From NCBI GenBank assembly GCA_964351225.1, contig CAYGNG010000011.1, forward strand, positions 886-64,885: a stretch of DNA of 64,000 nucleotides. Direction: 5' to 3'. Of this stretch, positions 13,034-52,502 are shown in pieces (the first letter of the stretch is position 1; every line of letters starts with the position of its first letter). A program made the translations under genes and the position numbers. The notes under the pieces were generated by a model that worked only from the letters and a program-made list of their open reading frames with translations, was not told the origin of the DNA and did not search any database. The stretch comes from an uncultured Gammaproteobacteria bacterium (lineage in GTDB: Bacteria > Pseudomonadota > Gammaproteobacteria > CAYGNG01).

Positions 13034-14101
13034 TTACGATAACCGCGCTATGTGTGCAGCGTGGCGATTACGCATATCTTGCGCTATCGTGCGCGCAAGA
13101 CTGGGTAAATGTGCCCCACACAAGATTGAATTATGATCACAATCTACCCATGTGGTTGTCAGATCCCGTAAAAACTTCTCCCACCCATGTGACTTTCTCT
13201 GCAAAAATAATTTTGAGTGTGGCAAACTGTGCCGCGACTGAAAAGACACGACCGGCTTATGGTAAATTTGATTCCGATGACGCATGAGCAACTTAATGTC
13301 ATTTCGGGTGGCCGCAAGAACGTGTTCCAACATCGGTTGTGGTAATTCACCCAAATAATGGCCAATGCGGTTAGGAAATTCTTGCTGAATACCTTTTAAG
13401 GTAATCATCCTTAAAACATGGCGCAACTGCACGCTGTCGTAACACGGCGTATCCAGCAAATAAATGGCCAATACCGCCTGACCTTCTGCTAAAAATTGTT
13501 GCGCAACTTCCAGCGCTAGTGTGCCGCCATAAGAAAAACCACCCAGAAAATACGGCCCCTCTGGAACCCGCGTTGCGATGTACTTTTTATAGCGCTTCGC
13601 TAATACCGTTAAAAACGGCATAAATTGCTCCCCACTGTATAAATTGTGTGAGTTAACCGCGTAGACCGCTGAATCCGTTTGCAACAGCTGGCTAAGCTCA
13701 CCGTAAACTTCCGCCCCGAATAAACTCGGTGGAAAAAAAATTAATGGTGGCGCACCTGAGCATCCGGCTTGCCATTGAATAATGGGCTCATAAGGAATAT
13801 GCAAATGAGGATGCTTACGCAAGGCAAGCGATTGTTGATAAATTGTCTGATTATGTTGCAGCCAGTCTGCGGGTAATGCTACCTGGAACTGCGCTTCGAT
13901 TCGTTGCTTCAGCCGCCGGCTTTTATCTCTGTCTGGATCAAACTGCGCGAGCGCAACCGTGACGCTATTAATCCGCTGTTGTAGGATTTCGCCCCACAAT
14001 CGGTAAAGCTGATATTCCACTTGATGATACAGCTGAAAACAGGGCGCTTGTAACCATTGCGCTTTATCGAGCGGTTTGCAACGCGCTATCTTTATTTTCA
14101 T
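13034..14101 (-). CDS. Alpha/beta-hydrolase, thioesterase-like (GxSxG), divergent from the megasynthase
   Basis: GFSYGG nucleophile elbow in a lipase/thioesterase-like context. I chose the ATG at 14101 (MKIKIARCK...) over the ORF-track start at 14152, which would overlap the neighbouring gene. Confidence 0.6.
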   Translation of the reverse strand: MKIKIARCKPLDKAQWLQAPCFQLYHQVEYQLYRLWGEILQQRINSVTVALAQFDPDRDKSRRLKQRIEAQFQVALPADWLQHNQTIYQQSLALRKHPHLHIPYEPIIQWQAGCSGAPPLIFFPPSLFGAEVYGELSQLLQTDSAVYAVNSHNLYSGEQFMPFLTVLAKRYKKYIATRVPEGPYFLGGFSYGGTLALEVAQQFLAEGQAVLAIYLLDTPCYDSVQLRHVLRMITLKGIQQEFPNRIGHYLGELPQPMLEHVLAATRNDIKLLMRHRNQIYHKPVVSFQSRHSLPHSKLFLQRKSHGWEKFLRDLTTTWVDCDHNSILCGAHLPSLARTIAQDMRNRHAAHIARLS

Positions 14102-14179
14102 TACCCTTTTCTCACAGTTTATGCTCGCATCGTGGGCGAAACACCCATACAATTCAAGCTCACAACAAAGGTGTTTGTA

Positions 14180-23506: not shown

Positions 23507-25399
23507 TCAAGTACAAAAACTTTCCCAACGCTGCTTTTTTAACGCCACCAAAAGTAATGAAATCGCAGCGGGTGTAACACCAGGAATCCGGCTGGCACAG
23601 CCAATGGTAGTTGGTTTAACCGCTAATAATTTTTCGCGCACTTCATTAGACAGCCCCCTGACCACTTGGTAATCAAAACCCTGAGGAATTGGTGTTTGCT
23701 CATGGTTCTTGTGTTTATCAATTTCCGCCTGTTGGCGTGCGATATAACCGGCATACCGCGCACTGATTTCTAATTGTTGAATGGCGCCAGGGTGCGTAAT
23801 GCCAGGTGCTAATCCTTCAAGGGTAACCAGCTGTTGGTACGATAACTCTGTTCTTGCCAGCAAGCTATCGGCACGAACTTCTCGCGAGAGCGGGTGTGGC
23901 AGCAGGGTGGATAATGCTTTCCCGGCGCTGGACTCCGGTTGGATCCAAATTTTGGCTAACCGCTGCTGCTCTTGCTCGAGCACGGTTTTTTTCTCATTAA
24001 AAATAGCCCATTGTGCAGCGCTTACTAAATTCATTTCCCGACCTATGGCGGTTAAACGAATATCCGCATTATCTTCCCGCAATAACAAGCGGTATTCCGC
24101 CCGAGACGTAAACATACGATATGGCTCGGGTGCGCCGTGGGTTATCAAATCATCAATCAAAACACCAATGTACGCTTGCGAACGAGATGGCGTCCAGGCG
24201 GGCAGGGCCGCAACCGCACGCGCCGCATTTAATCCAGCAATTATCCCTTGCGCGGCGGCTTCTTCGTAGCCGGTCGTGCCATTAATTTGCCCCGCAAAAA
24301 ACAAGCCAGAAATAACTTTCGTTTCAAGTGACGGCTTTAAATCGCGCGGATCAAAATAATCATACTCAATGGCATAACCCGGCCTGGTGATATGAACCCG
24401 CTCCAACCCCGGCATCGAGCGCACCAAAGCGGTTTGCACGTCAAACGGTAAGCTGGTCGATAACCCACTGGGGTAAATTTCGCTGGTGGTCAACCCTTCT
24501 GGCTCAATGAAGATCTGATGGCTCACCTTATCGGCAAAACGCACCACTTTATCTTCAATTGAAGGACAATAGCGAGGGCCTACGCCTTCGATATTACCGG
24601 AATACATGGCAGAGCGATGAATATGAGCACGGATGATCTCGTGCGTGTGCTCAGTTGTTTTAGCGATGTGGCAAGGCACTTGTTGCGGCCTGGGCAGATC
24701 ATCGCACGACCACAGTGAAAAACGCGGCAAAGGCTCATCGCCTGGCTGCACGACTAACCGCGAATAATCAATCGTATTCCCGGCAAAACGGGGCGGTGTT
24801 CCAGTCTTTAACCGACCGACTCGTAACGGCAACGCTCGTAATCGCTGAGCCAGCGCATTAGCCGGTGGGTCCCCAGCGCGGCCACCCGCTGATTGTTGAT
24901 CGCCGACATGAATTTTACCCCCAAGAAAAGTACCCACAGTCAACACCACCGCGTGTGCCATGAACCGCAACCCCATCTGCGTGATGACACCGCGCACGGC
25001 ATCATGCTCAACAATGAGATCGTCCACCGCTTGTTGAAAAAGCGTTAAGCGTGGCTCTTTTTCTAAACATTGGCGAATGGCTTGTCGATACAAAACTCTA
25101 TCGGCCTGCGCGCGCGTTGCTTGCACCGCGGGACCTTTTCGGGCATTTAAGATCCGAAAATGGATCCCAGCCAAATCGGTTGCCATGGCCATAATACCAC
25201 CTAGCGCATCTATCTCTTTCACAAGATGACTCTTACCGATCCCCCCGATAGAAGGATTGCAAGACATTTGCCCCAAGGTTTCGATATTATGGGTCAATAA
25301 CAAGGTATCCGCACCAGCACGAGCTGCGGCAAACGCCGCCTCTGTGCCAGCATGGCCACCACCAACCACGATAACATCGTAATGCTTTGCTAAGTCCAT
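23507..25399 (-). CDS. mnmG: tRNA uridine 5-carboxymethylaminomethyl modification enzyme
   Basis: FAD-binding [10 protein letters not shown], 630 aa. Confidence 0.95.
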
Positions 25400-25535
25400 G
25401 ATTTAACAACGTTAACACTGAATGGTGGGTATTATACTCCCACCCCAAAACGGAAACCAGTTAAATCATGACCAACTCGGGAAATTTGCAAACAGCAAGA
25501 CAAACGTTTCATATTTTTCAAGCCGCTCCCATAAA

Positions 25536-29304: not shown

Positions 29305-30534
29305 ATGCTATCTCATTTCCATCAGCCGTCGCCCACCCCAAGACAACAGCTGCTCTTACAAAACCTAGCGAAAAAACTTGGGTATGTTTGGTCAGAGGAC
29401 AGCAAGCCCTTGCTTATCGATATCGAGCAAACACTCAAAAAAAACATTGTCGACCTCTATCAAATTGAAGTCGCCAAAGTGGCGCGGCAAAACGTACCTG
29501 CGTTAACCCCGGAACAACAAAAAGCCTATCGCAACCTCAACCTCTGGATTGGCTGGATGACACGACACCGCGACATCATGATCGACTTAAAAAGCTATTT
29601 TACCCGATTTTTTAACAACCACCCCGGGGGGGCTTTATTGGGGGAGCATCTGCTTTTTGTAACCATCCTCGGGGTTTGGGGTAACCACAAATCAATTAAT
29701 CAGGATCCCGAACAGCAAACAGAGCCTCTGCGATACTATCAACCCAATATCCCATTACGTGTTTATAGAAACACCCCCCCGCAACTCATTGATCAACACA
29801 CAAAAACCTACTTTTTAACACAACAGAATTTGCGTCATTATGACAACATGGTCGCTGCAATCTTGGCGCGGCTCCGACCAAAAATCCAACAACTGCCTGT
29901 TGTTATCCTGCAATCAAAAAACCCACGGACTTTGGCGGCTTGCTATCACATTGATGAGACCGCGCGCACTTTGGTCGAAATCCGACAAAACACCAACGCA
30001 CTGCCTTCTTGTGATGAAAAAGAAAAAACGATAGCGCTTTATGAGATAATTCTTGACATCATAGCAACCGCCACTGAAAGTTACCCACAAAATGAAAATG
30101 AAGGCAATAAAGCCTATATTTACCAGCTCGCTATTTGGCGCGTGGCGCCTGAGCTCGCCTATTTGTTCGTACAATACGAGGTGATAAAACAGCTCTCACG
30201 CGCCCACCCGCTGCCCCAAAAGCCCAATCCATTGTATGCGGATTTAAAACAACGCCTTACTTTTGGAGAAGTTTCGGCAAAAGGGTATCATGAAGGCATT
30301 GCCGCACTACCAATAACACAACTATTAACCCTAAAAGCATTTCAGCCTTTACAACAACCCACCGAACACAAACGATCGAGAAAAGAGCTACCCACTCCCG
30401 AAAATAAACTTGGCACCGTAAAAAAATCGAAGAGACCGCCCCACGAACACCATCGTGAGGCAATCGAAAAGGATCAGCAACGGATTAACAAAACGCCGGG
30501 GAAGAAGTGCTTGCGGATAATTGCCGCCCCATAG
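29305..30534 (+). CDS. Hypothetical protein (409 aa). Its 3' end overlaps the convergent 1025-aa gene.
   Basis: Long ORF with no recognisable domains. Confidence 0.45.
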   Translation: MLSHFHQPSPTPRQQLLLQNLAKKLGYVWSEDSKPLLIDIEQTLKKNIVDLYQIEVAKVARQNVPALTPEQQKAYRNLNLWIGWMTRHRDIMIDLKSYFTRFFNNHPGGALLGEHLLFVTILGVWGNHKSINQDPEQQTEPLRYYQPNIPLRVYRNTPPQLIDQHTKTYFLTQQNLRHYDNMVAAILARLRPKIQQLPVVILQSKNPRTLAACYHIDETARTLVEIRQNTNALPSCDEKEKTIALYEIILDIIATATESYPQNENEGNKAYIYQLAIWRVAPELAYLFVQYEVIKQLSRAHPLPQKPNPLYADLKQRLTFGEVSAKGYHEGIAALPITQLLTLKAFQPLQQPTEHKRSRKELPTPENKLGTVKKSKRPPHEHHREAIEKDQQRINKTPGKKCLRIIAAP

Positions 30535-33500
30535 AAGACACCAACGACTCCTTCAGTGCTACATCACCAGACTGTGTGGCGTATTCCGTTACGTGTTGGC
30601 ACACGCTAGAATAAGCACCGTGTCTTATTGAATCGAGTGCCGATTCTAATTGTTGCAGCGGTATGGTGGCTAACAGTTGTTTAAGCTTAGCGGTGTTGGT
30701 TGGATTAACCGCGAACTTGCCGTTCTTAATCCATGTTGCAACGGCATCAAACCCCTTGGCAATAAACTTGCTCGCGTCATCCATTAATTGATTCGGTGCG
30801 GATCGCGCGGCATTCCGTCCGCTTTGGCTAAACATTCCCATGGTATTACCAAGCGATCCCATAAAATCAAAACCAGACATCTCGGGTTCCGATTTCGCTT
30901 CGCTGGCAACCGAATTAGCTGAGCGTTGCTCACGCCATTTGCCAAGAATATATTGTAAATATCCAGGGTTATCTGCTCGTAACAACACTTGCAACAGATT
31001 CAATCCGCCGATACCTTGATTCACATACACCTCTTCACATGAAAAATTCCAAACCGGATTTTTAAGTAAGTATTGCTCTTCCAATAAGGCCTTGAAACTC
31101 GCGAAATCAACCGTTGTTACTTTACCTTGGGCGTTAGTCACCAGGGTTCCTGAAATTAAGCGAATGAGGTTGCTTGGAATATCAATGCGGCTGTCAACGT
31201 GATCATATGCTCTATATAAAGGCCCATTCCCTCTCAGAGCGCCCTCAGCAAGCAACATGGCTCTCAATACGTCGTATTCCGGATTTTTATCCTTATAAAT
31301 TTCCAGAAAATCTAAAGCGGTATACCGATAACCATTAATCCTCGCTGTCACCGTATTCACATGATAGCCACCCAAGACCAACAACGTAAATAATTCTTCG
31401 GGGGAAACACCTCGAGCAAGGGCTTCATGAATTGGGGTAAGCCCAAATTGGTTCGTGAAAAACCGTAAGACTTTCATGCCTGGGCGAGAAAAAATCCAAA
31501 CCAATTCCGGCATGGGTATCTTCGTTAAATGATAAGTCACCCAATTTGCTAAGGTTTCTAACTTATGCACTCTCCCATCGAATAAAATTTGTGTAACTAA
31601 GGCTGGGTTTTTTTCTAAAAATGGCCGCCATTCGTGTACATTTACCCCTCGCGCTAAATTATCATAAAAGGTTTCAATTTCTGGCGATTGAACATGAGGA
31701 TCATACCCAGACACCAAGCCGGCAAACCGACCGGCTTGCCCATCTTGTAATTGGGCGACGCTTGCGGCTATCTTCCTCCGGTTTTTTTCAATATGCCTTT
31801 TAAACGCCAGTGGGCCGATTTTTAAGGTGATCATCAACACCGGGATTTTTACTTTCTTATCGCCTTGCTCATACACTTTGTGGCTGTCGGTCTTGATGAT
31901 CCGAATAACATCCGCGGACAACGCGAGTGTTTTACACACTAAATCCACCAGCGTTTTTGCTTCTTGGCTCTCCGTTGTCACTTTATCGTCACTTACTGGG
32001 ATCACGACTTTTAAATCACCAAATTGCTCAATCACACAACTTGGCATTTGATCCAAGGTTTGTAACATCTCTCTGACGCCTTGTAAGGCTTGTGTTGAAT
32101 CGGAAGCGTGCTCTAGCAAATCACGCGCCGAAGGTGCGCCACTGAAATGCTTATAGGCGACTCGTTCAGGCTTACCTTGGATGACCGCAGGCAATCGCGC
32201 CAGCGCAGAGGATTTTTTAGGGTGGTAATCAAATACCGCTTGGACTTGTGCCAACACGTGTGCTGTCGCCCCCGGCTGCCAACGAATGCAAACCGGTGGT
32301 AATTTGCCAAACCCTGGTGCGCCCTCCACCGGAGAGGCTTCACCATACATCTCTGCTTTTAAAGAATTTTCGCGTGTTTTATCGCGCGGACGAACTTCAT
32401 TGCATGGCACGGTAATCCGACGACGCATCCCGCCATTACCCTGGCGAACCGCCATGAGGGGTGCTGTTTTGTATCGTTGCGCAAGAGAATCCATCTCCTC
32501 ACCTTCTTTTTTAACCATGGCACCTAAGGCAAGTTTTGGATTTTGGCTTTGTAACAACGCTGGTTGGTTTTCCAAAAAGGTTTTCACCTGGTGTCTCCTA
32601 GCAAAAGGTAGGATACCGAAATTAACCTTGTCTTGTTGGTAAAAGTCACGCACGGCTGGCGCGGTATATTGATGCTCAAGAATATACAGTAAGCCAAAGT
32701 TGCGTAATTGCTTTCTGGTCAAGATTACTTCCGTGGTGTGCAGTAATTCACACACTCGCTCGACATCCACCTCTCCCGTTTCTTTTCGGTAACACGCGTT
32801 CCCTTGATCCCATTGGTTAAATAATTGCAACAATAATTCATCCACATCCAAATCGGGGCCACCAAATGCGCTATCTTCGCCTAAAGGAATGGCATGGGCA
32901 CGATAATAGCGCTCCATCATATGTAACAACATCCCTTGCAGATTTAACGCGGGACCAGCCAAAAAGTTAAATCGGTCTTCATCCACTTTTTGATCATCTT
33001 CCCCTTTCGCGAAAGGGCACCACGCGTGCATGCTTTGTACAGCGCCCGTTGCTAACAACTGTTCTAACTGTGTAATAAAAATCCCAACGGATTCATCTGA
33101 TTTATAGTGCGGACGAAAAACCTCTTGGGTTATGGTGCCTAACTCCGGCGTGATGTTTTTTTCTAACTTAAGCTCACTGTCCGCTGCTTGTTCCGCACTA
33201 ACCGGTTTAAAACGAAAATCCAATGAACCATAAGAAGAAAGCTCACCACCTCCCGTTAACACTTTGGCATTGGTGGCCAGCGCAATTCGAAACGCTTGGG
33301 CTTTTTGACCAACTGTTAACGAAAACATTAATTCTTGGAGTATCGGGTCCTCTTTTTTATCTTCTTGTGGCGCAACATACGCTGCGGACGCTTGGCTGAT
33401 GGGACGAGCCGCTCGCGGTGGCGCACCTTCTTCCTGATCCGAGTCATCATCGTGCTCATATTGTTGCAGATTCAGCGGCTGGCCTTCAATTTGGGCTGCA

Positions 33501-33562
33501 TCTAAATCTTGGATGGTAGAACCGGTATCTGGGTACATAAAAAACACTCCTTTTGTTGTCAC
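30485..33562 (-). CDS. Large hypothetical protein (about 1025 aa), candidate secreted effector
   Basis: Uninterrupted 3 kb ORF with an acidic N-terminal region and no recognisable catalytic motif. The alternative start MYPDTGS is 8 codons downstream. Confidence 0.55.
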   Translation of the reverse strand: MTTKGVFFMYPDTGSTIQDLDAAQIEGQPLNLQQYEHDDDSDQEEGAPPRAARPISQASAAYVAPQEDKKEDPILQELMFSLTVGQKAQAFRIALATNAKVLTGGGELSSYGSLDFRFKPVSAEQAADSELKLEKNITPELGTITQEVFRPHYKSDESVGIFITQLEQLLATGAVQSMHAWCPFAKGEDDQKVDEDRFNFLAGPALNLQGMLLHMMERYYRAHAIPLGEDSAFGGPDLDVDELLLQLFNQWDQGNACYRKETGEVDVERVCELLHTTEVILTRKQLRNFGLLYILEHQYTAPAVRDFYQQDKVNFGILPFARRHQVKTFLENQPALLQSQNPKLALGAMVKKEGEEMDSLAQRYKTAPLMAVRQGNGGMRRRITVPCNEVRPRDKTRENSLKAEMYGEASPVEGAPGFGKLPPVCIRWQPGATAHVLAQVQAVFDYHPKKSSALARLPAVIQGKPERVAYKHFSGAPSARDLLEHASDSTQALQGVREMLQTLDQMPSCVIEQFGDLKVVIPVSDDKVTTESQEAKTLVDLVCKTLALSADVIRIIKTDSHKVYEQGDKKVKIPVLMITLKIGPLAFKRHIEKNRRKIAASVAQLQDGQAGRFAGLVSGYDPHVQSPEIETFYDNLARGVNVHEWRPFLEKNPALVTQILFDGRVHKLETLANWVTYHLTKIPMPELVWIFSRPGMKVLRFFTNQFGLTPIHEALARGVSPEELFTLLVLGGYHVNTVTARINGYRYTALDFLEIYKDKNPEYDVLRAMLLAEGALRGNGPLYRAYDHVDSRIDIPSNLIRLISGTLVTNAQGKVTTVDFASFKALLEEQYLLKNPVWNFSCEEVYVNQGIGGLNLLQVLLRADNPGYLQYILGKWREQRSANSVASEAKSEPEMSGFDFMGSLGNTMGMFSQSGRNAARSAPNQLMDDASKFIAKGFDAVATWIKNGKFAVNPTNTAKLKQLLATIPLQQLESALDSIRHGAYSSVCQHVTEYATQSGDVALKESLVSSMGRQLSASTSSPAFC

Positions 33563-33685: not shown

Positions 33686-35032
33686 TTATTTTCCAATGCA
33701 AAAAGCTGAAAAAATTCTAGTGAGTAAATCTTCACTGGTAAATTGTCCGGTGATTTCACCAAGCGCTCGTTGTGCAAAAGAAAGCTCCTCTGCCAGTAAT
33801 TCACCAGCACCCTCGTTTTGCAGGCACGCCAATCCTTGCTGTAACGCTTTTTCTGCGGTATTTAAGGCTTCAATATGCCGTCGACGCGCGATAAAAGGGG
33901 AATCCATGTTTTCAGCCACCCCTAGGATTGTTTTTAAATGTTGCTTTAGTAAATCCACCCCCCGATCGGCCTTAAGCGAAATATAAATTTCATTTGGGAT
34001 GGTGTGTGTTTTTATGTGTGTACAGTAGTTGTGTGTTAAATCAATTTTATTATACACAATGGTTGTTTTACTGGGATCAATCGTTTCAGGTAATAATGAC
34101 CAATCGATGGTGTCGTCTTGTGCCAAATCAACTAACATTAACACATGATCGGCTTCTTTAATGGTTTTTAGTGTGCGTCGCATACCCTCTTGCTCGACCA
34201 CATCCCGGGTTTCGCGCAAGCCGGCGGTATCCATTATATGTAAAGGAATACCGTCAAGTTGTATGGATTCCTTTATAACATCGCGCGTGGTGCCGGCAAT
34301 ATCGGTGACAATAGCGCTATCATAGCCACTGAGCTTGTTGAGTAAACTCGATTTTCCCGCATTGGGTTTCCCCACAATGGCAATCGTCATCCCTTCTCTT
34401 AATAATTGTCCGTGTTTGGCTTGCGTTTTGATGGCTTCGATTTGGGAGATCAACACCTGCAGTTGTCTAAGCACTTTGCCATCAGAAAAGAAATCAATGT
34501 CTTCTTCGGCAAAATCCATGGCCGCCTCAACATACATCCGCAAATGGATTAATGCGTCAACGAGCTGGGTAATTTGTGAAGAAAACTCGCCTTGCAGTGA
34601 ACGCAGTGCGCTTTGCGCCGCTTGTGTGGTTTGGGCGTCAATCAGATCGGCGATGGCTTCAGCTTGCGCTAAATCAATCTTATCGTTTAAAAAAGCGCGT
34701 AATGAAAATTCACCCGGTTTTGCAAATCGCGCCCCCAGCGAAACCACCCGCTGTAATAAACGTTCGACCACCAGTGGTCCACCATGACAATGCAACTCCA
34801 AAACATCTTCCCCGGTAAAAGAATGCGGCGCAGGGAAAAACAAGGCTAAGCCTTCATCAATGACCTCGCCCGGTACCTCAGCGAGGAAGCGGCGAAATTC
34901 CGCCATTCTCGGCCTGGGCTTTTTTGCTAAAATTTGTTCGGCGATGGTTATTACGAGCGGCCCAGATACCCGAACAATCGCCACACCGCCCCGCCCAGGC
35001 GGTGTGGCTCGCGCCGCAATGGTTTCAGCCAT
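33686..35032 (-). CDS. mnmE: tRNA modification GTPase
   Basis: GKPNAGKSSLLN G1 motif, DTAGLRE G3 motif, C-terminal CIGK. Confidence 0.95.
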   Translation of the reverse strand: MAETIAARATPPGRGGVAIVRVSGPLVITIAEQILAKKPRPRMAEFRRFLAEVPGEVIDEGLALFFPAPHSFTGEDVLELHCHGGPLVVERLLQRVVSLGARFAKPGEFSLRAFLNDKIDLAQAEAIADLIDAQTTQAAQSALRSLQGEFSSQITQLVDALIHLRMYVEAAMDFAEEDIDFFSDGKVLRQLQVLISQIEAIKTQAKHGQLLREGMTIAIVGKPNAGKSSLLNKLSGYDSAIVTDIAGTTRDVIKESIQLDGIPLHIMDTAGLRETRDVVEQEGMRRTLKTIKEADHVLMLVDLAQDDTIDWSLLPETIDPSKTTIVYNKIDLTHNYCTHIKTHTIPNEIYISLKADRGVDLLKQHLKTILGVAENMDSPFIARRRHIEALNTAEKALQQGLACLQNEGAGELLAEELSFAQRALGEITGQFTSEDLLTRIFSAFCIGK

Positions 35033-37318: not shown

Positions 37319-37453
37319 TCAGGCACTCAACCGTTTCCGGCCTTTCGCGCGGCGATGATTGATTATTTTCCTTCCGTTTTTGGTGCTCATTCGCTTGCGA
37401 AACCCGTGATCCCGTTTTCGCTTCAGATTGCTGGGTTGAAAAGTTCTTTTCAT
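37319..37453 (-). CDS. rpmH: 50S ribosomal protein L34
   Basis: I translated this by hand: [44 protein letters not shown], 44 aa. It is missing from the ORF track because it is under 60 aa and in a different frame from the over-extended rnpA ORF. Confidence 0.9.
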
Positions 37454-37600
37454 TATATTTCACCGATGTCATTGATTTATAAAGGTTGACGCAAAGAGAC
37501 GGGATCCTATGTGATAGGCGGGGATTTGTCAAATAAAAGTTCATAGCCTTTTTTCCTTCTTTCATCATTAACATATCTTAATATTTTATTTTTTTATGAT

Positions 37601-37706
37601 GGTTATTAGTCGCGTTTTTATGAGGATAAGGTTTTTTTTGTTATTTTTATCAAACGGTTATGATATGAATAAAAAACCCATTTGGGTTGGGTGTGTTTGT
37701 GGATAA
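37601..37706. promoter_or_regulatory. Second DnaA-box cluster (TGAGGATAA at 37601-37609, perfect TGTGGATAA at 37698-37706) in an AT-rich tract just downstream of rpmH
   Basis: Consensus matches as seen in the sequence. A T-rich region lies at 37560-37690. Confidence 0.5.
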
Positions 37707-37815
37707 AATTGTAACGTGGTGGTGGTGTGTTTACGATTTTAACGATACAGTAAAAAACGCCATTTTTATCACAAGGTCATTTGCAGATTACTCACAACTT
37801 TACAGGGTTATTCGA

Positions 37816-38979
37816 ATGAGGGAAAAATACGCACTTCTGGTTTTTTTATTGGTTTGCTCGCTTTCTGCTTATGCGCAAAGTGACGACAGATTTTTAATCG
37901 TGGTTGATGCCGGCAGCCGTGGTACGCGATTGCACCTCTATTCTCTTCACTATTCGCTAGGCAACCTATTAATTATCAATGAATTATCAGATCCCAACCG
38001 CCTGCAAACGGGTAATATTGATGCTTTTGCAGAGGATCCTCATCAAGCAGGCCAACAGGTAAAGCCACTTTTTGCGCTGGCTAGTGCCATGATCGAAAAA
38101 GAAGGTGGTGATCCGAAACAAGTTTCAGCCTATTTCTACGCAACAGCCGGAATGCGCTTATTGGAGCAAAAAAATCCAATAAAAGCGCGCACCATCTATC
38201 AAAGCATTCGTTTGCAGATGCAAAAATATTTTCAGGTAAAAGCGGTTCGTACTTTATCCGGGGTATGGGAGGGTATTTATAATTGGATTGGTATTAACTA
38301 CCTATTAGGTCGGTTACAAGACCCCAAAAAAACAGTTGCGGCATTAGATATGGGAGGCGCCTCGACGCAAATTACTTATTCGGTGGAAAGCCATCAAGCG
38401 GCTGATCTTATCCCGGTCCGAGTGGGGCATTATAAATACAATGTGTTGTCACACTCTTTTTTAGGTTTGGGACAAAACCAAGCGGAACAAAATGTGGGTT
38501 TTGTCGCTGCCTGCTATCCCCAAAACGCATTGCCTGGATCCGAAACGGCTTTTGTTTTCCAACCGTGCGCCATGCGTCTTACCGCTTTGCTCGATAAATA
38601 TCACATAGCGAACGCGTTTAAGCACAAAATTGAAGCGGATGAACAGTTTCTAGGGGTCTCCGGGTATTATTACGTGGGCGATTTTTTTGGGATTTCAGAC
38701 AAAAGCTATCCAATACAAGCGCTGCATGATCAGATCGTGGCGGTTTGTTCACAACCGTATCGTCGGATCCAACAACAACATCCGCAAATCGATCCCAAAT
38801 ACCTCGCGCATTATTGCTTCCAAGGCGTTTATCAATACGTCTTGTTGACACAGGGTTACGGACTATCGGAGGCATCTACCGCGGAGCGCTATAATATCCT
38901 CAATGCGGTTACCACCGCCCGCGGCACCGTAATTCCGTCGTGGAGTCTCGGCGTAGCGGTTTCGCAAGGAATGCCTTAA
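37816..38979 (+). CDS. Secreted GDA1/CD39-family nucleoside triphosphate diphosphohydrolase (apyrase), eukaryotic-like
   Basis: Apyrase conserved regions VVDAGSRGTRLHLY (ACR1), YATAGMRLL (ACR2) and LDMGGASTQITY (ACR4). Signal peptide MREKYALLVFLLVCSLSAYA when started at ATG 37816. Confidence 0.8.
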   Translation: MREKYALLVFLLVCSLSAYAQSDDRFLIVVDAGSRGTRLHLYSLHYSLGNLLIINELSDPNRLQTGNIDAFAEDPHQAGQQVKPLFALASAMIEKEGGDPKQVSAYFYATAGMRLLEQKNPIKARTIYQSIRLQMQKYFQVKAVRTLSGVWEGIYNWIGINYLLGRLQDPKKTVAALDMGGASTQITYSVESHQAADLIPVRVGHYKYNVLSHSFLGLGQNQAEQNVGFVAACYPQNALPGSETAFVFQPCAMRLTALLDKYHIANAFKHKIEADEQFLGVSGYYYVGDFFGISDKSYPIQALHDQIVAVCSQPYRRIQQQHPQIDPKYLAHYCFQGVYQYVLLTQGYGLSEASTAERYNILNAVTTARGTVIPSWSLGVAVSQGMP

Positions 38980-39068
38980 CCCCCCGTTATTGCGTTTTGC
39001 GCCCGGAATTAGCGCTGCGTTGGGGTTTCGGGTGCCGCGGTTAATCTACCCCCGTGTTTTATCTCGCA

Positions 39069-39184
39069 ATTATTATAAATATATATATTTTTATTTGGTT
39101 GTTATTATTAATCGCGTTTTAATCCGAATATCTGTTATTTTGTTATTTAAATCAATTAGTTGCTTATTAAAAATCAGTGGATAA
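39069..39184. promoter_or_regulatory. AT-rich candidate DNA-unwinding element plus a near-consensus DnaA box (AGTGGATAA, 39176-39184). Probable oriC core.
   Basis: About 100 bp of more than 80% A+T (attattataaatatatatatttttattt...) directly upstream of a cluster of DnaA boxes (39176-39184 and 39303-39311, plus TTATACACA at 39256-39264). Confidence 0.55.
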
Positions 39185-39302
39185 CTCTCTGAACAACTTT
39201 TCTCTCTGTGTCGTAAACTTTTATTATAATGTGAACAACCCGCGCTTCCTCCTTGTTATACACAACATAAAGGCAGGAGGAGGGTGCGTTTTCCCTAATA
39301 TG

Positions 39303-39311
39303 TGTGGATAA
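39303..39311 (+). promoter_or_regulatory. Perfect DnaA box (TGTGGATAA) 39 bp upstream of dnaA
   Basis: Exact reverse complement of the TTATCCACA consensus. Confidence 0.7.
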
Positions 39312-39349
39312 CTCAAGCCCCTCAAGGTAAACTCAACGGCTAAGTAAGA

Positions 39350-40780
39350 TTGACGGAAAAACCGTATTTTGAGGAGAAGCGCTTGGCCGAGTCGTCAGCA
39401 ATTTGGGAAAATTGCTTAGAAAAGCTGCAGGATGAAATTTCCCAACAACAATTTAATACCTGGTTACGGCCGCTACAAGCCGAAGAACGCGACAACAAGC
39501 TGTGGTTATTTGCTCCGAATCGTTTTGTGCTGGATTGGATTAGTGATAAATTTTTACCACGAATTAATGATGTGTTGCGAATGATTTGTCACGACAAATC
39601 ACCCCCGGTCGTCGTTCTTGAAATAGGAAGCAAGAGCGATGGTGCGTTAGGGCGTTTTTCAACACCAGAAACGCGGGACGCCGCAGTGGTTCGAACGAAC
39701 AACGCCCCGACCCCCATTGGGGATCTGGTTTCCGCCCCCGGCGGGGGGGGGGAAGCGCATCGCAGCAACATCAATCGAACCTTTACCTTTGAGAATTTTG
39801 TAGAAGGCAAATCGAACCAGCTGGCACGAGCGGCTTCTATGCAAGTGGCGGAAAATCCTGGCGCGGCTTACAATCCCTTGTTTCTTTACGGTGGTGTCGG
39901 GTTGGGTAAAACGCACTTAATGCACGCGGTGGGTAACTTAATTATAGAACACAAACCCAATGCGAAGGTCTTGTATTTGCACTCGGAGCGTTTTGTTGCC
40001 GACATGGTAAAAGCGCTGCAGACTAATCGCATGAACGATTTTAAGCGGTATTACCGGTCAGTGGATGCGTTATTAATCGATGACATCCAGTTTTTTGCGG
40101 GTAAAGATCGGTCGCAAGAAGAGTTTTTCCATACGTTTAATGCGCTGCTGGAAGGGCAGCAACAAGTCATCCTAACGTGTGACCGCTATCCCAAAGAAAT
40201 AAAAGGCCTAGAAGAAAGATTAAAATCTCGATTTGGATGGGGGTTGACGGTTGCCGTTGAACCACCAGAGTTGGAAACGCGCGTTGCCATTTTAATCTCG
40301 AAAGCACAACAGTCAAACATCGAATTACCCCACGAAGTGGCTTTCTTTGTTGCTAAGCGGATCCGCTCAAACGTTCGAGAGCTGGAAGGCGCCCTAAAAA
40401 GAATCATTGCAAATGCTCATTTTACCGGGAAGCCCATCACGATAGATTTTGTCAGAGAAGCACTAAAAGATTTATTAAGCTTACAAGACAAGCTTATCAC
40501 GATAGAGAACATCCAAAAAACCGTGGCGGAATATTACAAAATTCGCGTATCCGATTTATTATCGAAACGACGCAGTCGTTCAGTTGCCAGGCCAAGGCAA
40601 ACAGCAATGGCACTCGCAAAAGAATTAACGAACCATAGCCTTCCTGAAATCGGGGATGCTTTCAATGGGCGTGACCATACCACGGTGTTGCATGCTTGCC
40701 GCACAATCAAGACATTGCGCGAATCCAATGTTGATCTTGAGCAAGATTTTATGAATTTGTTGCGAATATTAAGCACATAG
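39350..40780 (+). CDS. dnaA: Chromosomal replication initiator DnaA
   Basis: AAA+ [10 protein letters not shown], DnaA signature, C-terminal DNA-binding domain. TTG start as given by the ORF track. Confidence 0.95.
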
Positions 40781-49897: not shown

Positions 49898-50059
49898 GGA
49901 TCTGTCTACAATTACTTTTTGGGGCTGCAAATGCCGCTCTCTTTGTCTCAATCATCGTTTGATCTCGTCAAATAGGAGTCACTATTCTCCTCGCGCAAAC
50001 GATGATTGCGACAACTTATCGACATTTTCGCTCCGAAAAAGCAATTGTAAACAGACCCT
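49898..50059 (+). repeat. MITE-like element, full copy 2
   Basis: aggatctgtctacaattactttttggggctgcaaatgccgctctctttgtc ... gcaattgtaaacagaccct. About 90% identical to copy 1. Confidence 0.75.
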
Positions 50060-50213
50060 ATCTTTCATCACACGTTTGCTAGTAAATTCTTACAGGAGAA
50101 AAAATGTTACCCAACGACGCGCCTAAAAATAATAGTGACTCAGCTGGTGTTGATGAAGACATTAAGCTGCTTAATCAGCCTACGATCGTTCGTTTGACAA
50201 TGACGACCATGAA

Positions 50214-50616
50214 GCCAATGACGGGTATGAAGCGCAACTGGTGCAAATGATTAACACGGAGCGCTTCCGTCGCGATCAGCTTACGGGTCATAATTTGAGA
50301 TTATTGCAACACATGGCTGCTATTAAAAAAATGCTGTCCTTAAGCGGTGGGCAGGAGATTACGTTTTGCACATGGGTTCGCTTACCTTTACATCACGGGG
50401 CAGGGGGCCAGAGGTTGCCGCCGGGCTGTTTGATAGAGTTTCAAGGGAGATGATGAAAAAACAACTTCTTCAAGCGAGCAATAATGATGAAGAAGCAAAA
50501 AGCGCTGCTTCTGCATCAGCAGATAGCGCTTCTTTTTCCTGATACTCCCCCACACGCTTGGGGCCCCACCCATCGTTCGTTGTGCGATGCGTGGGGCTAT
50601 ATAGATTAAGGCCTAG
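50214..50616 (+). repeat. Direct repeat A (403 bp) flanking the ATPase cassette. It carries a pair of small overlapping ORFs and a hairpin.
   Basis: Near-identical to 52503-52902, with a few substitutions and a 3-nt indel. Contains a 70-aa ORF, then an ATGA-overlapped ~30-aa acidic/Ser-rich ORF (MMKKQLLQASNNDEEAK...), then the stem ccccacccatcg / cgatgcgtgggg. Confidence 0.8.
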
Positions 50617-50865
50617 CACCCTGTTAAAAAGTTTTTGTGCCTTGATTAATTAGGAGAAAATGAGAGAATACTCACTTTTTGAATAAGTAAGTATCAATGA
50701 GCGGAAATGGAATTCAAATTCGGTTAACGAAAAAAGATTTATTGGTAATCAAAGAATATTTAAAGTACTAAGCGCCTCGGGTGATTAGAAGATGTAATAT
50801 TTTAAATGCACTTAATCTTGGGTATGGGGTTATTGAAGATATTGACCGTGATTTTTAATCCAGCA

Positions 50866-52308
50866 TCACCATCGGCTTTCTAAAAGTTCGGAAAAATCAA
50901 TTACCTTAAAAAAATAATTTTTGTCAAGAACAGCATCCTGTACACCGTTAACATGTATTAATACAGGAAGACAGGAAAAACCTCGGGGAAGACTTAAGTT
51001 AGATAATTTTTTTTTCATTTCATTAATGATATCAAGCTTTATCTCATTTCTACTGAACTTAATCTCACAGGCATATAAGGTTGCTGTTTTGGTTTGGACA
51101 AGATAATCAATTTGGCATCCTTTTGTTTTGGTTGTGGATCTTTGAAAAAAAGGACCATCTATTTCAACATCGTCATGATCGATATTTAAAATGCCATGAA
51201 TAATTTCTCTGTTAGATAGGACTAAATTTTCAAATTGCAAGCCTATAATACTAGACCAGCCTACGAGATTAGAAAGAGAGGAGACCTTATGCTTTCTGAT
51301 TTTTATTGTATTTATATGTGTTTTAATATATTTAAGATAAAATCTCATGTAATTATCAGATAATCTATAGCGACTTAACTTAGATGTTTTTTTATTTTTA
51401 ATATGCCATGTATAATCTCGAGTAATAAAACCGGCTGAAATTAAGTTATCAAGATACTCACTAAAGTCCCCGCCGGGCACTCTCTTTAGCTTTTCGGCAA
51501 TTTCTTGCCTTTCCATTGGTGAACGAATCAAGGCTACTACAATTTTCTTATAAATGTCTGCTTCAGATGAGATTGAATCATAAAATATTTGATCAAACTC
51601 ATTAAACAATATACCGCTTTCATGAAAACACATTTTATTGATATTATTATCAATACTGGTATTTTCTTGCCATTCTTCTAAATATCTTGGTATGCCCCCA
51701 CATATAGCTAAGAATTTAAATTTATCATATGAAGACAGTTGAGATGATCTTTCATTAAAGAATTGGTCACACCTATTTAATGGAAGCTCGTTTAAGGTAA
51801 TCTGTAAAGAAATTCGTCCGACAAACCCAGTATTGGATAATATATTTTTCTGTATCCAGATGGATACGGAACCACATAGTATCAGAATCAATTCGTTATT
51901 TTTTTTAAAACAAGTATCCCATACCGTTTTTAGTTTTCCTAGAAAATCTGGGTCTTTAGACCCCATCCATGATATTTCATCAAATAATATAATTGCCCTT
52001 CCTTTTTTTGTTCTTTCCGCAAGAAACCATAGCATATCCCACCAATCATTGCTTTCAATGTTGGTTTTTTTGAAATGTTTAGTTAGTTGTTTCAGGAAGG
52101 CGTTCCTTTCTGACATGTCAGAGGTTTTTTCATGGGGCGGAATCCCTGAAAAACTATAGAAGGAATGCTTTTTAGCGAATTCTTCCACTAGACGACTTTT
52201 CCCTATTCGCCGCCGTCCTTTTATAACAACCAAGCTCGCAGATTTTTTGGCAAGCAAACTATTCAATATTTTTAATTCATATTCACGGCCTATAAAATCT
52301 GGCATCAC
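50866..52308 (-). CDS. AAA+ ATPase of the archaeal-ATPase / DUF4143 (DUF234)-like family, in a low-GC insert
   Basis: Walker A GRRRIGKS, Walker B ILFDEISW, 480 aa. The local sequence looks markedly more AT-rich (roughly 30-35% GC) than the flanks. Confidence 0.8.
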   Translation of the reverse strand: MMPDFIGREYELKILNSLLAKKSASLVVIKGRRRIGKSRLVEEFAKKHSFYSFSGIPPHEKTSDMSERNAFLKQLTKHFKKTNIESNDWWDMLWFLAERTKKGRAIILFDEISWMGSKDPDFLGKLKTVWDTCFKKNNELILILCGSVSIWIQKNILSNTGFVGRISLQITLNELPLNRCDQFFNERSSQLSSYDKFKFLAICGGIPRYLEEWQENTSIDNNINKMCFHESGILFNEFDQIFYDSISSEADIYKKIVVALIRSPMERQEIAEKLKRVPGGDFSEYLDNLISAGFITRDYTWHIKNKKTSKLSRYRLSDNYMRFYLKYIKTHINTIKIRKHKVSSLSNLVGWSSIIGLQFENLVLSNREIIHGILNIDHDDVEIDGPFFQRSTTKTKGCQIDYLVQTKTATLYACEIKFSRNEIKLDIINEMKKKLSNLSLPRGFSCLPVLIHVNGVQDAVLDKNYFFKVIDFSELLESRW

Positions 52309-52502
52309 ATAATCCTCATAAGTCCCCGATAACAGAACAATATCTTTTTGCGGGGGCTTATGTCAAGTGTCGTGTCTTTGCTGTAGGGGCTGTGCGATAT
52401 AAAAGTAAGTAGCGTAACGCTCTGCTTTTTCATCATGCATTTTTTCTTTTTAGCAATGGTAACTACTCGGGCCCTTTGGGCGCTAAGGCATTGCCAGCAA
52501 GT

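Follow-up and report, generated by a model that had tools for sequence, protein, structure and literature searches.

Two paralogous origin-type units bracket an NTPDase gene between rpmH and dnaA: a possible tandemly duplicated origin in a Legionella-like bacterium

The region between rpmH and dnaA of an uncultured Legionella-like bacterium is tentatively read here as a tandemly duplicated chromosomal origin, in which two oriC-type units of the same orientation bracket the gene of a putatively secreted NTPDase (probability about 0.45). The window, meaning the whole stretch of DNA that was analysed, comprises 64 kb. Each unit has an AT-rich element ending in TTATTA(G/A) and a CG cluster. An R1-type DnaA box that faces this element lies 11 bp from TTATTA(G/A), and beyond it are an IHF consensus site, whose C is 21-22 nt past the box, and further boxes; this layout is that of the unwinding half of a gammaproteobacterial oriC. 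The origin unit appears to have been duplicated, rather than one origin split, since each spacer holds a full paralogous unit of the oriC type.

Gene order at the locus

On the minus strand, the left of the locus carries mnmE, yidC, yidD, rnpA and rpmH. The rpmH gene (37319-37453, minus strand) encodes ribosomal protein L34, as judged from the open reading frame list and the Pfam match to Ribosomal_L34 (E = 9e-25), and is the final gene of this leftward rpmH-rnpA-yidD-yidC-mnmE block. Rightward of it follow a 362-bp spacer, the NTPDase gene (37816-38979, plus strand), a second spacer and, on the plus strand, dnaA, dnaN, recF and gyrB. The earlier note had described a CD39-type NTPDase gene in the rpmH-dnaA spacer with DnaA-box clusters on either side, and the coordinates, the Pfam match and the box positions agree with this. 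It had also called rpmH-dnaA adjacency with oriC in between the common arrangement. The adjacency is indeed common, being present in 72 of the 80 gammaproteobacterial DnaA loci fetched, but the location of oriC is not so uniform: in the E. coli group oriC lies at mnmG-mioC, and Pseudomonas has two origins.

The dnaA gene (39383-40780, plus strand; Pfam DnaA_N, Bac_DnaA and Bac_DnaA_C) most likely starts with the TTG at 39383. The mechanical open reading frame starts at 39350, and this start had been adopted earlier; the TTG fits better because GAGGAG lies 6 nt upstream and because it agrees with the 465-aa database version. The dnaA promoter is probably located within 39230-39311. A promoter scan gave no convincing promoter for the NTPDase gene or dnaA. 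For rpmH, a candidate sigma-70-like promoter, TTGACA-17-TAGGAT (37504-37532, minus strand), is proposed from a consensus match only (10/12), and it would direct transcription away from the left AT-rich element. Rfam families and tRNAs were looked for in the region, and none was found.

The left and right units

DnaA boxes occur at all five positions reported earlier, namely TGAGGATAA at 37621, TGTGGATAA at 37698, AGTGGATAA at 39176, TTATACACA at 39256 and TGTGGATAA at 39303. Only two perfect boxes exist in the 64 kb, one per flanking spacer. With up to one mismatch allowed, 33 boxes are present in the window, and shuffles give 14.9 +/- 3.6. The density of relaxed boxes is 13.8 per kb in the left spacer and 10.8 per kb in the right, compared with 2.5 per kb window-wide; the left spacer has five and the right four, and the probability of reaching these counts or more in shuffles of each spacer is 0.009 for the left and 0.015 for the right. 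No box cluster was found elsewhere in the window. The IHF consensus WATCAANNNNTTR has nine matches in the 64 kb, two of which lie at the equivalent place in the two units. GATC clustering of the Dam/SeqA type is absent from the region.

The left unit spans about 37549-37796. Its AT-rich unwinding-type element, DUE-L (37549-37609, plus strand), is delimited by stability, simplified SIDD and the four-unit alignment, and holds the third least stable 60-bp stretch of the 64 kb. Simplified single-bubble SIDD, the positive control of which selects the E. coli 13-mer region, gives it a P(open) of 0.87-0.96 at a sigma of -0.05 to -0.06 in a 2.5-kb context. DUE-L terminates in GAT GGT TAT TAG, a series of trio-like triplets that includes TTATTAG. 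It is followed by a TCGCG cluster, 6 bp and the R1-type box TGAGGATAA (together 37610-37629, plus strand; sequence and box scan). This box, at 37621-37629, is in reverse orientation with one mismatch and lies 11 bp from TTATTAG. The candidate IHF site TATCAAACGGTTA (37648-37660, plus strand) is an exact match to the consensus, with its conserved C 22 nt past the R1-type box. In the stretch 37664-37706 (plus strand), box and hairpin scans then give the relaxed box TATGAATAA at 37664 and the perfect box TGTGGATAA at 37698-37706; an insertion of about 24 nt that is specific to the window also lies here and contains the hairpin AACCCATTTGGGTT (37675-37688). Two forward relaxed boxes from the relaxed-box scan, TTTATCACA (37765) and TTACTCACA (37788), complete the unit (37765-37796, plus strand), and TTACTCACA lies just 5' of the NTPDase start. 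The 24-nt insertion breaks the spacing of this unit, which has only two consecutive trio-like triplets; both features speak against a duplicated origin.

The right unit, on the side of dnaA, spans about 39063-39311. Its AT-rich unwinding-type element, DUE-R (39063-39116, plus strand; stability, simplified SIDD and A+T content), holds the second least stable 60-bp stretch of the 64 kb, and its P(open) rises to 0.99 over 39063-39114 in the same simplified single-bubble model. When both units are placed in one 5-kb domain, DUE-R opens first. The A+T content is 91% over 39069-39113 and 83.2% over 39069-39175, in keeping with the stretch of over 80% described earlier; only one other site in the window has at least 80% A+T over 107 bp. 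That description, real as far as it went, was incomplete in that it overlooked the second AT-rich stretch at about 37549-37609. DUE-R terminates in TGT TAT TAT TAA, with three consecutive NAN triplets (39103-39111), and then TCGCG (39112-39116). The box at the R1 position, TCCGAATAT (39123-39131, plus strand; sequence and four-way alignment), lies 11 bp past TTATTAA and is degenerate, with four mismatches to TGTGGATAA and three to the relaxed consensus. Further on lie the candidate IHF site AATCAATTAGTTG (39150-39162, plus strand; consensus scan), whose C is 22 nt past the R1-position box, and the twin reverse boxes AGTGGATAA and TCTGAACAA, separated by 3 bp (39176-39196, plus strand; box scan and comparison with a relative). 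Box scans place the reverse TGTGAACAA at 39230, the forward TTATACACA at 39256 and the perfect reverse TGTGGATAA at 39303 (together 39230-39311, plus strand).

Paralogy and conservation of the units

A paralogous unit of about 135 nt is present in both spacers, collinear and in equal orientation. The local alignment of the left and right copies scores 49; dinucleotide shuffles score 21.3 +/- 2.7, and none of 500 reaches 49 (z = 10.3). The NTPDase gene had earlier been said to split the origin region, a description that does not hold for spacers of which each contains a full paralogous unit. A metagenomic relative, L001, has the same arrangement, and its left and right copies align with z = 3.8. 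An nhmmer profile built from the four copies recovers only those four sites in the window and in all loci then fetched.

Spacing is shared as well as sequence. TTATTA(G/A), 11 bp and a box are present in all four copies. The gap between the box and the IHF C is 21 bp (C at nt 22) in both window units and in the right unit of L001, and 20 bp in the left unit of L001. From TTATTAR to the strong box, the distance is 88 nt in the left unit of the window and 64, 64 and 63 nt in the other three copies; the 64 nt to the box at the AGTGGATAA position are common to the right units of both genomes. These distances were taken from explicit alignment, which was used instead of a rigid scanner (box, 40-48 bp, box) that missed the window units and the E. 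coli R5M.

The DnaA of L001 is 77% and its NTPDase 41% identical to those of the window, and the proteins overall are only 34-84% identical. The cargo between the units is one gene in the window and four genes (4.5 kb) in L001, where the gene upstream of the right unit is an MFS transporter. Between the two genomes, which are the only ones carrying the arrangement and thus provide a single comparison, the left units (z = 7.3), the right units (z = 6.3) and the rpmH-proximal flank (z = 5.9) are conserved, whereas the NTPDase-proximal flank (z = 0.5) and the post-cargo flank (z = -0.1) are at shuffle level. The best conserved block is the junction of TTATTAG and the R1-type box in the left unit; the L001 counterpart of this box is TGGGGATAA, with the 11-bp spacing kept. 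TTACTCACA is also kept in L001 (1553). In the right unit, the twin boxes belong to a conserved 20-nt block, GTGGATAACTYTCTGRAYAA, which in L001 reads GGTGGATAA, 3 bp, TCTGGATAA, and the distance from the forward TTATACACA to the perfect TGTGGATAA is 47 bp in the window and 48 bp in L001. The L001 equivalent of the right R1-position box is GGAGGATAT, with three mismatches. This box is therefore degenerate in both genomes (3-4 mismatches), which weighs against a duplicated origin.

Neither cluster looks like a decaying relic, because both units are conserved in L001 and the adjacent non-coding DNA is randomised. Both may have been retained by selection since the common ancestor with L001. The earlier note had offered either a bipartite oriC or one relic cluster. 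The bipartite option is nearer to the evidence, and the relic does not agree with z values of 6.3-7.3 beside flanks at shuffle level. It is very improbable that one cluster is a neutral insertion relic, or that a mobile element brought in the NTPDase gene and left the direct repeats behind as att-type scars. Direct repeats around cargo of differing length, one gene in the window and four in L001, do resemble the outcome of an integration. However, both repeats are conserved while neutral non-coding DNA is randomised, integrase, transposase and tRNA are absent in or beside the cargo of both genomes, the repeats are built from DnaA boxes, an IHF site and an unwinding element spaced as in an origin, and the composition of the cargo has fully converged on that of its neighbours. 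An integrated mobile element with att repeats was rejected on these grounds. Conserved DnaA boxes and IHF sites could also serve transcription control or DnaA titration without firing, a point to be set against a duplicated origin.

The units may go back to a single old duplication followed by some homogenisation, or their history may be more complex. In the four-way alignment, nine informative sites group left with left and right with right, and nine group the two window copies and the two L001 copies. The duplication and the capture of the NTPDase gene would date back at least to the common ancestor of this genome and the L001 lineage. A DnaA-based genome scan (80 loci) and a DnaA protein search gave no further case of the arrangement. 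Further DnaA contigs included L145, with 84 bp upstream, and L144, which is 60% identical and has an internally duplicated DnaA. Sister lineages (DnaA 73-76% identical) were rejected as a guide to the ancestral state, since polA or DUF4383, not rpmH, lies upstream of dnaA.

The NTPDase gene

The gene between the origin-type units (37816-38979, plus strand) encodes a putatively secreted GDA1/CD39 NTPDase of 387 aa and is classed as a passenger from Pfam, structures, synteny and composition. The protein matches Pfam GDA1_CD39 (PF01150) with 191.8 bits (gathering cut-off 24.9, E = 2e-56) and the solved structures of rat NTPDase1 (3zx3, 2e-32) and L. pneumophila Lpg1905 (3aap, 2e-28). All five apyrase conserved regions, ACR1-ACR5, are readable in the translation as IVVDAGSRGTRL, YATAGMRLL, GVWEGIYNWIGINYLLG, LDMGGASTQ and HSFLGLGQNQA, and the alignment with rat NTPDase1 spans them. 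Judged by eye, the N-terminus MREKYALLVFLLVCSLSAYA|QS resembles a Sec signal and ends in AYA|Q. Read from its sequence, the NTPDase is an ordinary Lpg1905-like apyrase, probably secreted, and a passenger outside the initiation machinery. Hairpins after the gene are no better than in shuffles (z = -0.47).

Among 5.8 billion proteins, the sole close homologue is P0002 (41% identity), which adjoins rpmH in L001 and is thus syntenic; no other homologue from the protein search exceeds 37% identity. A metagenome scan with a two-sequence NTPDase profile returned 61 loci, none with rpmH, dnaA or their neighbours beside the NTPDase gene; these have at most 34% identity over most of the protein, with short segments of up to 37%. 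Neither P0003 nor any of 55 other metagenomic NTPDase loci adjoins rpmH or dnaA.

Judged by synteny and composition, the NTPDase gene is not a recent insertion between rpmH and dnaA, since its nearest homologue is found next to rpmH in L001 and its GC and GC3 are the same as those of the neighbouring genes. The word "inserted" is therefore inappropriate if meant in a recent sense. A gene ancestral at this site, combined with an oriC entirely on the dnaA-proximal side, had been named earlier as evidence that would count against the insertion reading. The first half of this is borne out by the synteny in L001, but the second conflicts with units on both sides.

Which unit would unwind

By analogy with E. 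coli, DnaA and IHF would assemble on both units, and one unit, or either, would open for helicase loading. The other might add DnaA-loading capacity and control the flanking promoters, those of rpmH and the NTPDase gene on the left and that of dnaA on the right. The left unit fits the formal oriC rules better; the right unit melts more easily and has more boxes. As the unwinding unit, the left is tentatively the first choice, the right is less probable, and use of either is less probable again.

In E. coli, R1, IHF and R5M have defined roles, and the spacing between the unwinding element and R1 is strict (PMC5716108). Published oriC criteria make it mandatory that a reverse R1-type box of the consensus TGTGNAWAA lies at a distance of about two helical turns from the unwinding element, and place the conserved C of the IHF site 21 bp downstream of R1; in all confirmed origins, the upstream gene is reported to be transcribed away from the unwinding element (10.1101/2025.08.05.668638). 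Simplified single-bubble SIDD yields a superhelicity-dependent unwinding element in both units, and both have the IHF C at the stated spacing. Compared with TGTGNAWAA, the left box TGAGGATAA has one mismatch and qualifies, but the right box TCCGAATAT has three and does not. On the left, the upstream gene rpmH is on the minus strand and points away from the unwinding element; on the right, the NTPDase gene is on the plus strand and points towards it, and the same is true of L001. This transcription towards the right unwinding element breaks the reported rule and is a further observation against a duplicated origin. The basal unwinding system has been defined as a box with up to two mismatches that is separated by 0-16 bp from a run of three or more NAN triplets (PMC8287927). 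In the left unit, the box and the spacer of 11 bp fit, but the run of triplets is limited to TAT TAG (GAT is one triplet off); the right unit has TAT TAT TAA and an 11-bp spacer, but a box with four mismatches.

A single origin on the rpmH side is a rather unlikely alternative. The left unit would then be oriC, and the right unit would be the dnaA promoter or autoregulatory region, which kept its origin-like shape after duplication. Its support comes from the left unwinding element with a reverse R1-type box (one mismatch) at the right distance and an exact IHF site at +22, from rpmH being transcribed away with a promoter-like site 20-40 bp off, from the order of reverse and then forward boxes, and from the switch in gene orientation, which coincides with the left spacer. 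The left unit is also the sole site in the window that passes a strict R1-plus-IHF scan with an AT-rich upstream flank; the strict R1-plus-IHF scan is specific but insensitive, with five or six matches among the 72 rpmH-dnaA spacers. The degenerate R1 box of the right unit and the gene facing its unwinding element point the same way. Against this reading, the right unit melts more easily, has twin close boxes typical of DnaA oligomer arrays, and retains the TTATTAR-CG junction together with identical spacings of 11 bp and 64 nt in both genomes, for which a promoter or autoregulatory region would have no need.

Somewhat less probable still is a single origin on the dnaA side, with the right unit as oriC and the left as a non-firing DnaA/IHF regulatory site, acting on the rpmH operon and/or the NTPDase gene, or as a site of DnaA titration of the datA/DARS type. 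The most AT-rich element (91% over 45 nt) belongs to the right unit and wins the melting competition in both genomes; this unit also has three consecutive trio-like triplets, more boxes (four in the window and six in L001) and a geometry conserved at 64 nt in both genomes, and the geometry of the left unit of the window is broken by the 24-nt insertion. Yet the left unit retains the junction of unwinding element and R1 as the best conserved block between the genomes, and the right unit breaks the flanking-gene rule and is without a near-consensus R1 box.

Under the preferred reading, that of a tandemly duplicated origin, both units might themselves be active origins 1.5 kb apart (4.5 kb in L001), working in alternation or as one DnaA/IHF-looped complex with a virulence-type NTPDase gene trapped inside; this stronger version is doubtful.

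Position of the origin in the chromosome

The cumulative GC skew of the 64-kb window is flat at about 35.0-39.5 kb, with its minimum at 35750, and rises afterwards. The GC-skew sign change thus falls between 35 and 39.5 kb. The plateau takes in both units and is coarse on a 64-kb fragment; at fine scale, GC, AT, RY and MK skews do not separate the two spacers, which are 1.5 kb apart.

That the true origin lies elsewhere, with both clusters being purely transcription-regulatory, is hardly likely. In its favour are the coarseness of the skew and the Legionella-like metagenome-assembled genome L004, which has a long rpmH-dnaA spacer without consensus boxes, so that origins in this group may vary. 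On the other side stand the skew sign change in this region, the full oriC-type anatomy of both units and the lack of any other box cluster in the window. The mnmG side is empty: mnmG lies at 23510-25402 of the window, and the 690-bp region upstream of it contains no DnaA box with up to one mismatch.

Significance

Bacterial chromosomes are taken to have a single origin, the accepted exceptions being Bacillus and Helicobacter, where dnaA splits the origin, and Pseudomonas, where two origins occupy different intergenic regions. The duplicated origin proposed here would add a third layout, in which a complete unwinding unit occurs as a tandem pair that encloses unrelated cargo, both copies being kept across a divergence at which neutral DNA was scrambled. 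If both were active, the locus would be a case of a tandem origin duplication maintained naturally by a bacterial chromosome, and would offer a natural experiment on the coordination of two origins of identical type at such a short distance. It would test how strict the rule of a gene transcribed away from the unwinding element is, imply that origin regions can host passenger genes, and tie the copy number of the NTPDase gene and its DnaA-box-bearing promoter region to replication initiation. If only one fires, the other would be a worked example of an origin copy turned into a DnaA/IHF regulatory site. Annotation tools that choose one intergenic region per genome would capture half of the structure.

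Comparison with known origins and NTPDases

Like the window protein, Lpg1905 and Lpg0971 of Legionella pneumophila belong to GDA1/CD39 and have five apyrase conserved regions and an N-terminal secretion signal (PMC7542358). Unlike these ecto-NTPDases, the window NTPDase sits inside an origin region, and it is only about 30-37% identical to its best non-syntenic homologues.

The window units share the order and orientation of the unwinding half of the E. coli oriC, that is, DUE, R1, IHF and R5M (PMC5716108). The E. coli oriC reads TTATTAG, 13 bp, R1, ATCAA at nt 20 and R5M 46 bp on. The distance from TTATTAG, at the end of the T-rich strand, to the reverse R1-type box is 11 bp in the window and 13 bp in E. 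coli; the IHF core ATCAA lies 20 nt past the box in both, and the next box of the same orientation follows 43-44 bp on in the window units and 46 bp on in E. coli. In contrast to E. coli, the window has two copies, located at rpmH/dnaA and not at mnmG-mioC, without GATC 13-mers or GATC clustering, with fewer boxes and with a weak right R1.

Pseudomonas aeruginosa also has two oriC-type regions a few kb apart near dnaA, oriC1 (rpmH-dnaA) and oriC2 (mnmG side), each with an unwinding element, R1 and an IHF site (10.1101/2025.08.05.668638). A dual origin of this type was rejected in view of the box-free mnmG side of the window. The window units are instead tandem paralogues inside a former rpmH-dnaA spacer, with cargo unrelated to replication between them and a rightward gene upstream of the right unit.

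Bacillus subtilis and Helicobacter pylori, with their oriC1-dnaA-oriC2 arrangement, likewise have two box clusters about 1.5 kb apart with a gene in between (PMC8235120, PMC4403523). There, the intervening gene is dnaA and only one sub-origin carries an unwinding element. A bipartite origin of this type was rejected for the window, where the clusters are separated by the NTPDase gene (four genes in L001) and each has its own unwinding element and R1-IHF core.

Gene organisation of the dnaA locus

In the ORF list and Pfam scan, mnmE (33686-35032), then yidC, yidD and rnpA, and then rpmH (37319-37453) lie on the minus strand. After a left spacer of 362 bp they are followed by a plus-strand gene (37816-38979) for a GDA1/CD39 NTPDase of 387 aa (PF01150, E = 2e-56). 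A second, right spacer separates this gene from dnaA, dnaN, recF and gyrB, all on the plus strand. The most likely dnaA start is TTG 39383 rather than TTG 39350, where the mechanical ORF begins: GAGGAG lies 6 nt upstream of it, the usual DnaA N-terminus results, and the 465-aa database version of the protein (P0124) agrees.

Pseudomonas-type gene orders have mnmG adjoining mnmE. Here, mnmG (23510-25402) is parted from mnmE by an 8-kb block with a GGDEF/EAL response regulator, an MFS transporter and two unknown ORFs. An ORF of 1025 aa within this block (30485-33562, minus strand), between mnmE and the MFS transporter gene, had no match in the Pfam scan; its product may be effector-like. Elsewhere in the window, a hybrid megasynthase of 1689 aa (14054-19120, plus strand) carries AMP-binding, ketosynthase, carrier-protein and class-III aminotransferase domains. 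A probable horizontal acquisition is a low-GC island (50000-52400; GC ~0.36-0.38 versus 0.46 for the window), which includes a 498-aa PF01637 ATPase_2 gene (50869-52362, minus strand) and, at 51300-51343, the DNA of lowest stability in the window.

The NTPDase as a passenger

The NTPDase sequence shows all five apyrase conserved regions, and its N-terminus reads as signal-like, ending AYA|Q. Solved structures that the protein matches include rat NTPDase1 (3zx3, 2e-32) and, from L. pneumophila, Lpg1905 (3aap, 2e-28). Among 5.8 billion proteins searched, the sole homologue above 37% identity is P0002 (41%), encoded on L001, an 8.6-kb metagenomic contig of a relative. The gene order of L001 is yidC, yidD, rnpA, rpmH, NTPDase, short-chain dehydrogenase, LysR (minus strand), MFS transporter, dnaA, dnaN, and the two syntenic NTPDases are mutual closest relatives. 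As the position is the same and identities to the window are 77% for DnaA, 65% for DnaN, 84% for RpmH and 34% for RnpA, the NTPDase stands beside rpmH in two deeply diverged lineages. Its GC (0.460) and GC3 (0.441) equal those of neighbour genes. No NTPDase was found at the 80 other dnaA loci from Gammaproteobacteria, and neither rpmH nor dnaA adjoins the NTPDase at the 55 other loci from metagenomes or at that of a further homologue, P0003. The earlier note had described the gene as inserted between rpmH and dnaA. The location is correct, but a recent event is at odds with the synteny in L001 and the neighbour-like composition, which argue for a long-standing passenger.

The region 5' of dnaA is evidently rearrangement-prone in this group. 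In four sister loci (L146-L148 and L002; DnaA 73-76% identical), polA or DUF4383 takes the place of rpmH: an oppositely oriented polA lies 5' of dnaA, accompanied in some cases by the gene for a small DUF4383 membrane protein, so the rpmH-dnaA linkage was lost independently there. In L004, a MAG labelled Legionella sp., the rpmH-dnaA spacer (6104-7351; 1.25 kb, 72% A+T) lacks a long ORF as well as any DnaA box matching the consensus at up to one mismatch; its origin, if located there, would use divergent boxes. L144, a 6.8-kb contig of GCA_029782595.1 (an assembly of >63,000 contigs), encodes a 673-aa DnaA (3961-5982) with an internally repeated DnaA_N + ATPase segment, and its rpmH-dnaA spacer carries a 120-bp direct repeat. 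Misassembly is the probable explanation, or else the contig stems from a symbiont and was taken up in a eukaryote assembly.

Origin-type signals in both spacers

The earlier note had placed DnaA boxes on both sides of the NTPDase gene, and a box scan recovers them. Perfect TTATCCACA boxes occur at 37698 and 39303, one in each spacer and nowhere else in the 64 kb. At up to one mismatch, 33 boxes are observed versus 14.9 +/- 3.6 in shuffles; with the relaxed consensus TTWTNCACA (up to one mismatch), the left spacer has 5 (13.8/kb) and the right 4 (10.8/kb), against 2.5/kb window-wide. The A+T-rich stretch at 39069-39175 is likewise real (83.2% A+T), and just one further place in the window reaches at least 80% over 107 bp. 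GC skew, proposed as a check, switches sign in this region; the cumulative curve is flat over ~35.0-39.5 kb, with its minimum at 35750, and does not separate the two spacers. The region 5' of mnmG contains no DnaA boxes, and thus there is no E. coli-type or Pseudomonas oriC2-type origin on that side. GATC is over-represented window-wide (246 versus 196 +/- 13.5 in shuffles) but nearly missing from these spacers, of which the left has a single site (37503) and the right lacks it; since no GATC clustering was found, control of the Dam/SeqA type would not be expected.

A collinear segment recurs, identically oriented, in both spacers. The local alignment of left versus right scores 49 in the window, compared with 21.3 +/- 2.7 for dinucleotide shuffles (z = 10.3, 0/500), and z = 3.8 in L001. 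A profile of the four copies, searched against the window and all loci fetched by then, matched those four sites alone; the unit is therefore no dispersed repeat. On the plus strand, each unit consists of ~45-60 nt of AT-rich DNA, TTATTA(G/A), a CG cluster (TCGCG, GCGCG or TCGAC), a reverse DnaA box at the R1 position, an IHF consensus and a strong reverse box. The distance from TTATTA(G/A) to the R1-position box is exactly 11 bp in every unit, and the conserved C of the IHF site is nt 22 after that box (nt 21 in the L001 left unit).

In the window, the left unit has the R1-position box TGAGGATAA at 37621 (1 mismatch) and an exact IHF site at 37648, the right unit TCCGAATAT at 39123 (4 mismatches) and an exact IHF site at 39150. 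In L001, the boxes are TGGGGATAA at 1387 (left, 1 mismatch) and GGAGGATAT at 5899 (right, 3 mismatches), each with an IHF site of one mismatch. TTATTA(G/A) and the strong box are 64 nt apart in both right units, 63 nt in the L001 left unit and 88 nt in the window left unit, the last because of a 24-nt insertion absent from the other three, which carries a palindromic hairpin AACCCATTTGGGTT (37675-37692) with T-runs on both strands. This anatomy points to an origin unit that was duplicated, not split.

When the 60-bp stretches of the 64 kb are ranked from the least stable upward, numbers two and three fall in the two AT-rich parts. In a simplified single-bubble SIDD model with 2.5-kb contexts, which selects the 13-mer region of E. 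coli as a positive control, 37549-37609 opens with P up to 0.96 and 39063-39114 with P up to 0.99, and the open region ends at the TTATTA(G/A) junction in both units. With both units in one 5-kb domain, the right opens before the left in the window; in L001 the two are tied at low stress, and the right is ahead at higher stress. Both AT-rich parts are thus predicted to behave as unwinding elements.

Conservation and history of the units

Between the window and L001, segment comparison gives z = 7.3 for the left unit, 6.3 for the right and 5.9 for the rpmH promoter/5' flank, versus 0.5 for the NTPDase-proximal flank and -0.1 for the post-cargo flank. At this divergence, then, neutral non-coding DNA has been scrambled but the units have kept their similarity, which suggests that both are under selection. 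Conserved on the right only are a 20-nt block, GTGGATAACTYTCTGRAYAA, with twin boxes separated by 3 bp, and a forward box followed 47-48 bp on by a perfect reverse box; conserved on the left only are the string ATGGTTATTAG(T/G)CGCGTT...ATG(A/G)GGATAA and a forward box, TTACTCACA, directly 5' of the NTPDase start.

By parsimony, the duplication would be older than the split of the two lineages, because both hold both copies at matching places and their right copies share an extra TTA. Among informative sites of the four copies, nine group left with left and right with right, nine group within genomes and two are crossed; within each genome, the copies also seem to have been homogenised to some extent or to have changed in parallel. 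Speculatively, single-crossover integration of a circular DNA bearing a copy of the origin core could have left direct origin repeats around its cargo.

Which unit would fire

Judged by explicit oriC criteria (10.1101/2025.08.05.668638), the left unit appears the better candidate. It combines an unwinding element, a near-consensus R1, an exact IHF site and boxes in reverse-then-forward order; rpmH, upstream of the unit, reads away from it and has a promoter-like site at 37504-37532, and the gene-orientation switch is located in the left spacer. The right unit departs on two points, an R1 with 3-4 mismatches and an upstream gene transcribed toward the unwinding element. It is ahead in A+T and ease of melting, in three consecutive trio-like triplets (TAT TAT TAA), in its twin boxes and larger box total, and in a geometry perfectly conserved with L001, where the window left unit has its insertion. 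Firing from the left unit is the leading reading, at a little under one in two; the right unit is distinctly less probable, and use of either one slightly less so again.

Comparison with known systems

The E. coli oriC sequence has the same order of elements. Its R 13-mer ends TTATTAG, 13 bp from R1 TGTGGATAA as against 11 bp in the units of the window and L001; the IHF core ATCAA begins 20 nt past R1, and R5M lies 46 bp past R1. The minimal unwinding unit of E. coli is made up of R1, IHF and R5M, with strict spacing between unwinding element and R1 (PMC5716108). According to a 2025 preprint (10.1101/2025.08.05.668638), the IHF C of gammaproteobacterial origins lies "almost invariably" 21 bp past R1 on its downstream side, an offset that our own scan also found in the rpmH-dnaA spacers of Halomonas, Chromohalobacter and Marinobacter. 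An Rfam search of the region matched no family.

A mobile-element scar was rejected, as neither an integrase nor a tRNA is present and the repeats are conserved. Of the alternatives left by the earlier note, a bipartite origin comes nearer to the evidence than a relic cluster, both units being conserved with L001. The bipartite type of B. subtilis and H. pylori does not apply, as a gene other than dnaA lies between the clusters and each half contains an unwinding element; nor does the dual arrangement of P. aeruginosa, given the lack of an mnmG-side origin and the position of both units within the former rpmH-dnaA spacer. The comparison of two genomes instead argues that the entire origin unit was duplicated in tandem, that a long-resident passenger gene lies between the copies and that both copies have been conserved; the origin core probably functions in the manner of the E. 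coli or Pseudomonas type.
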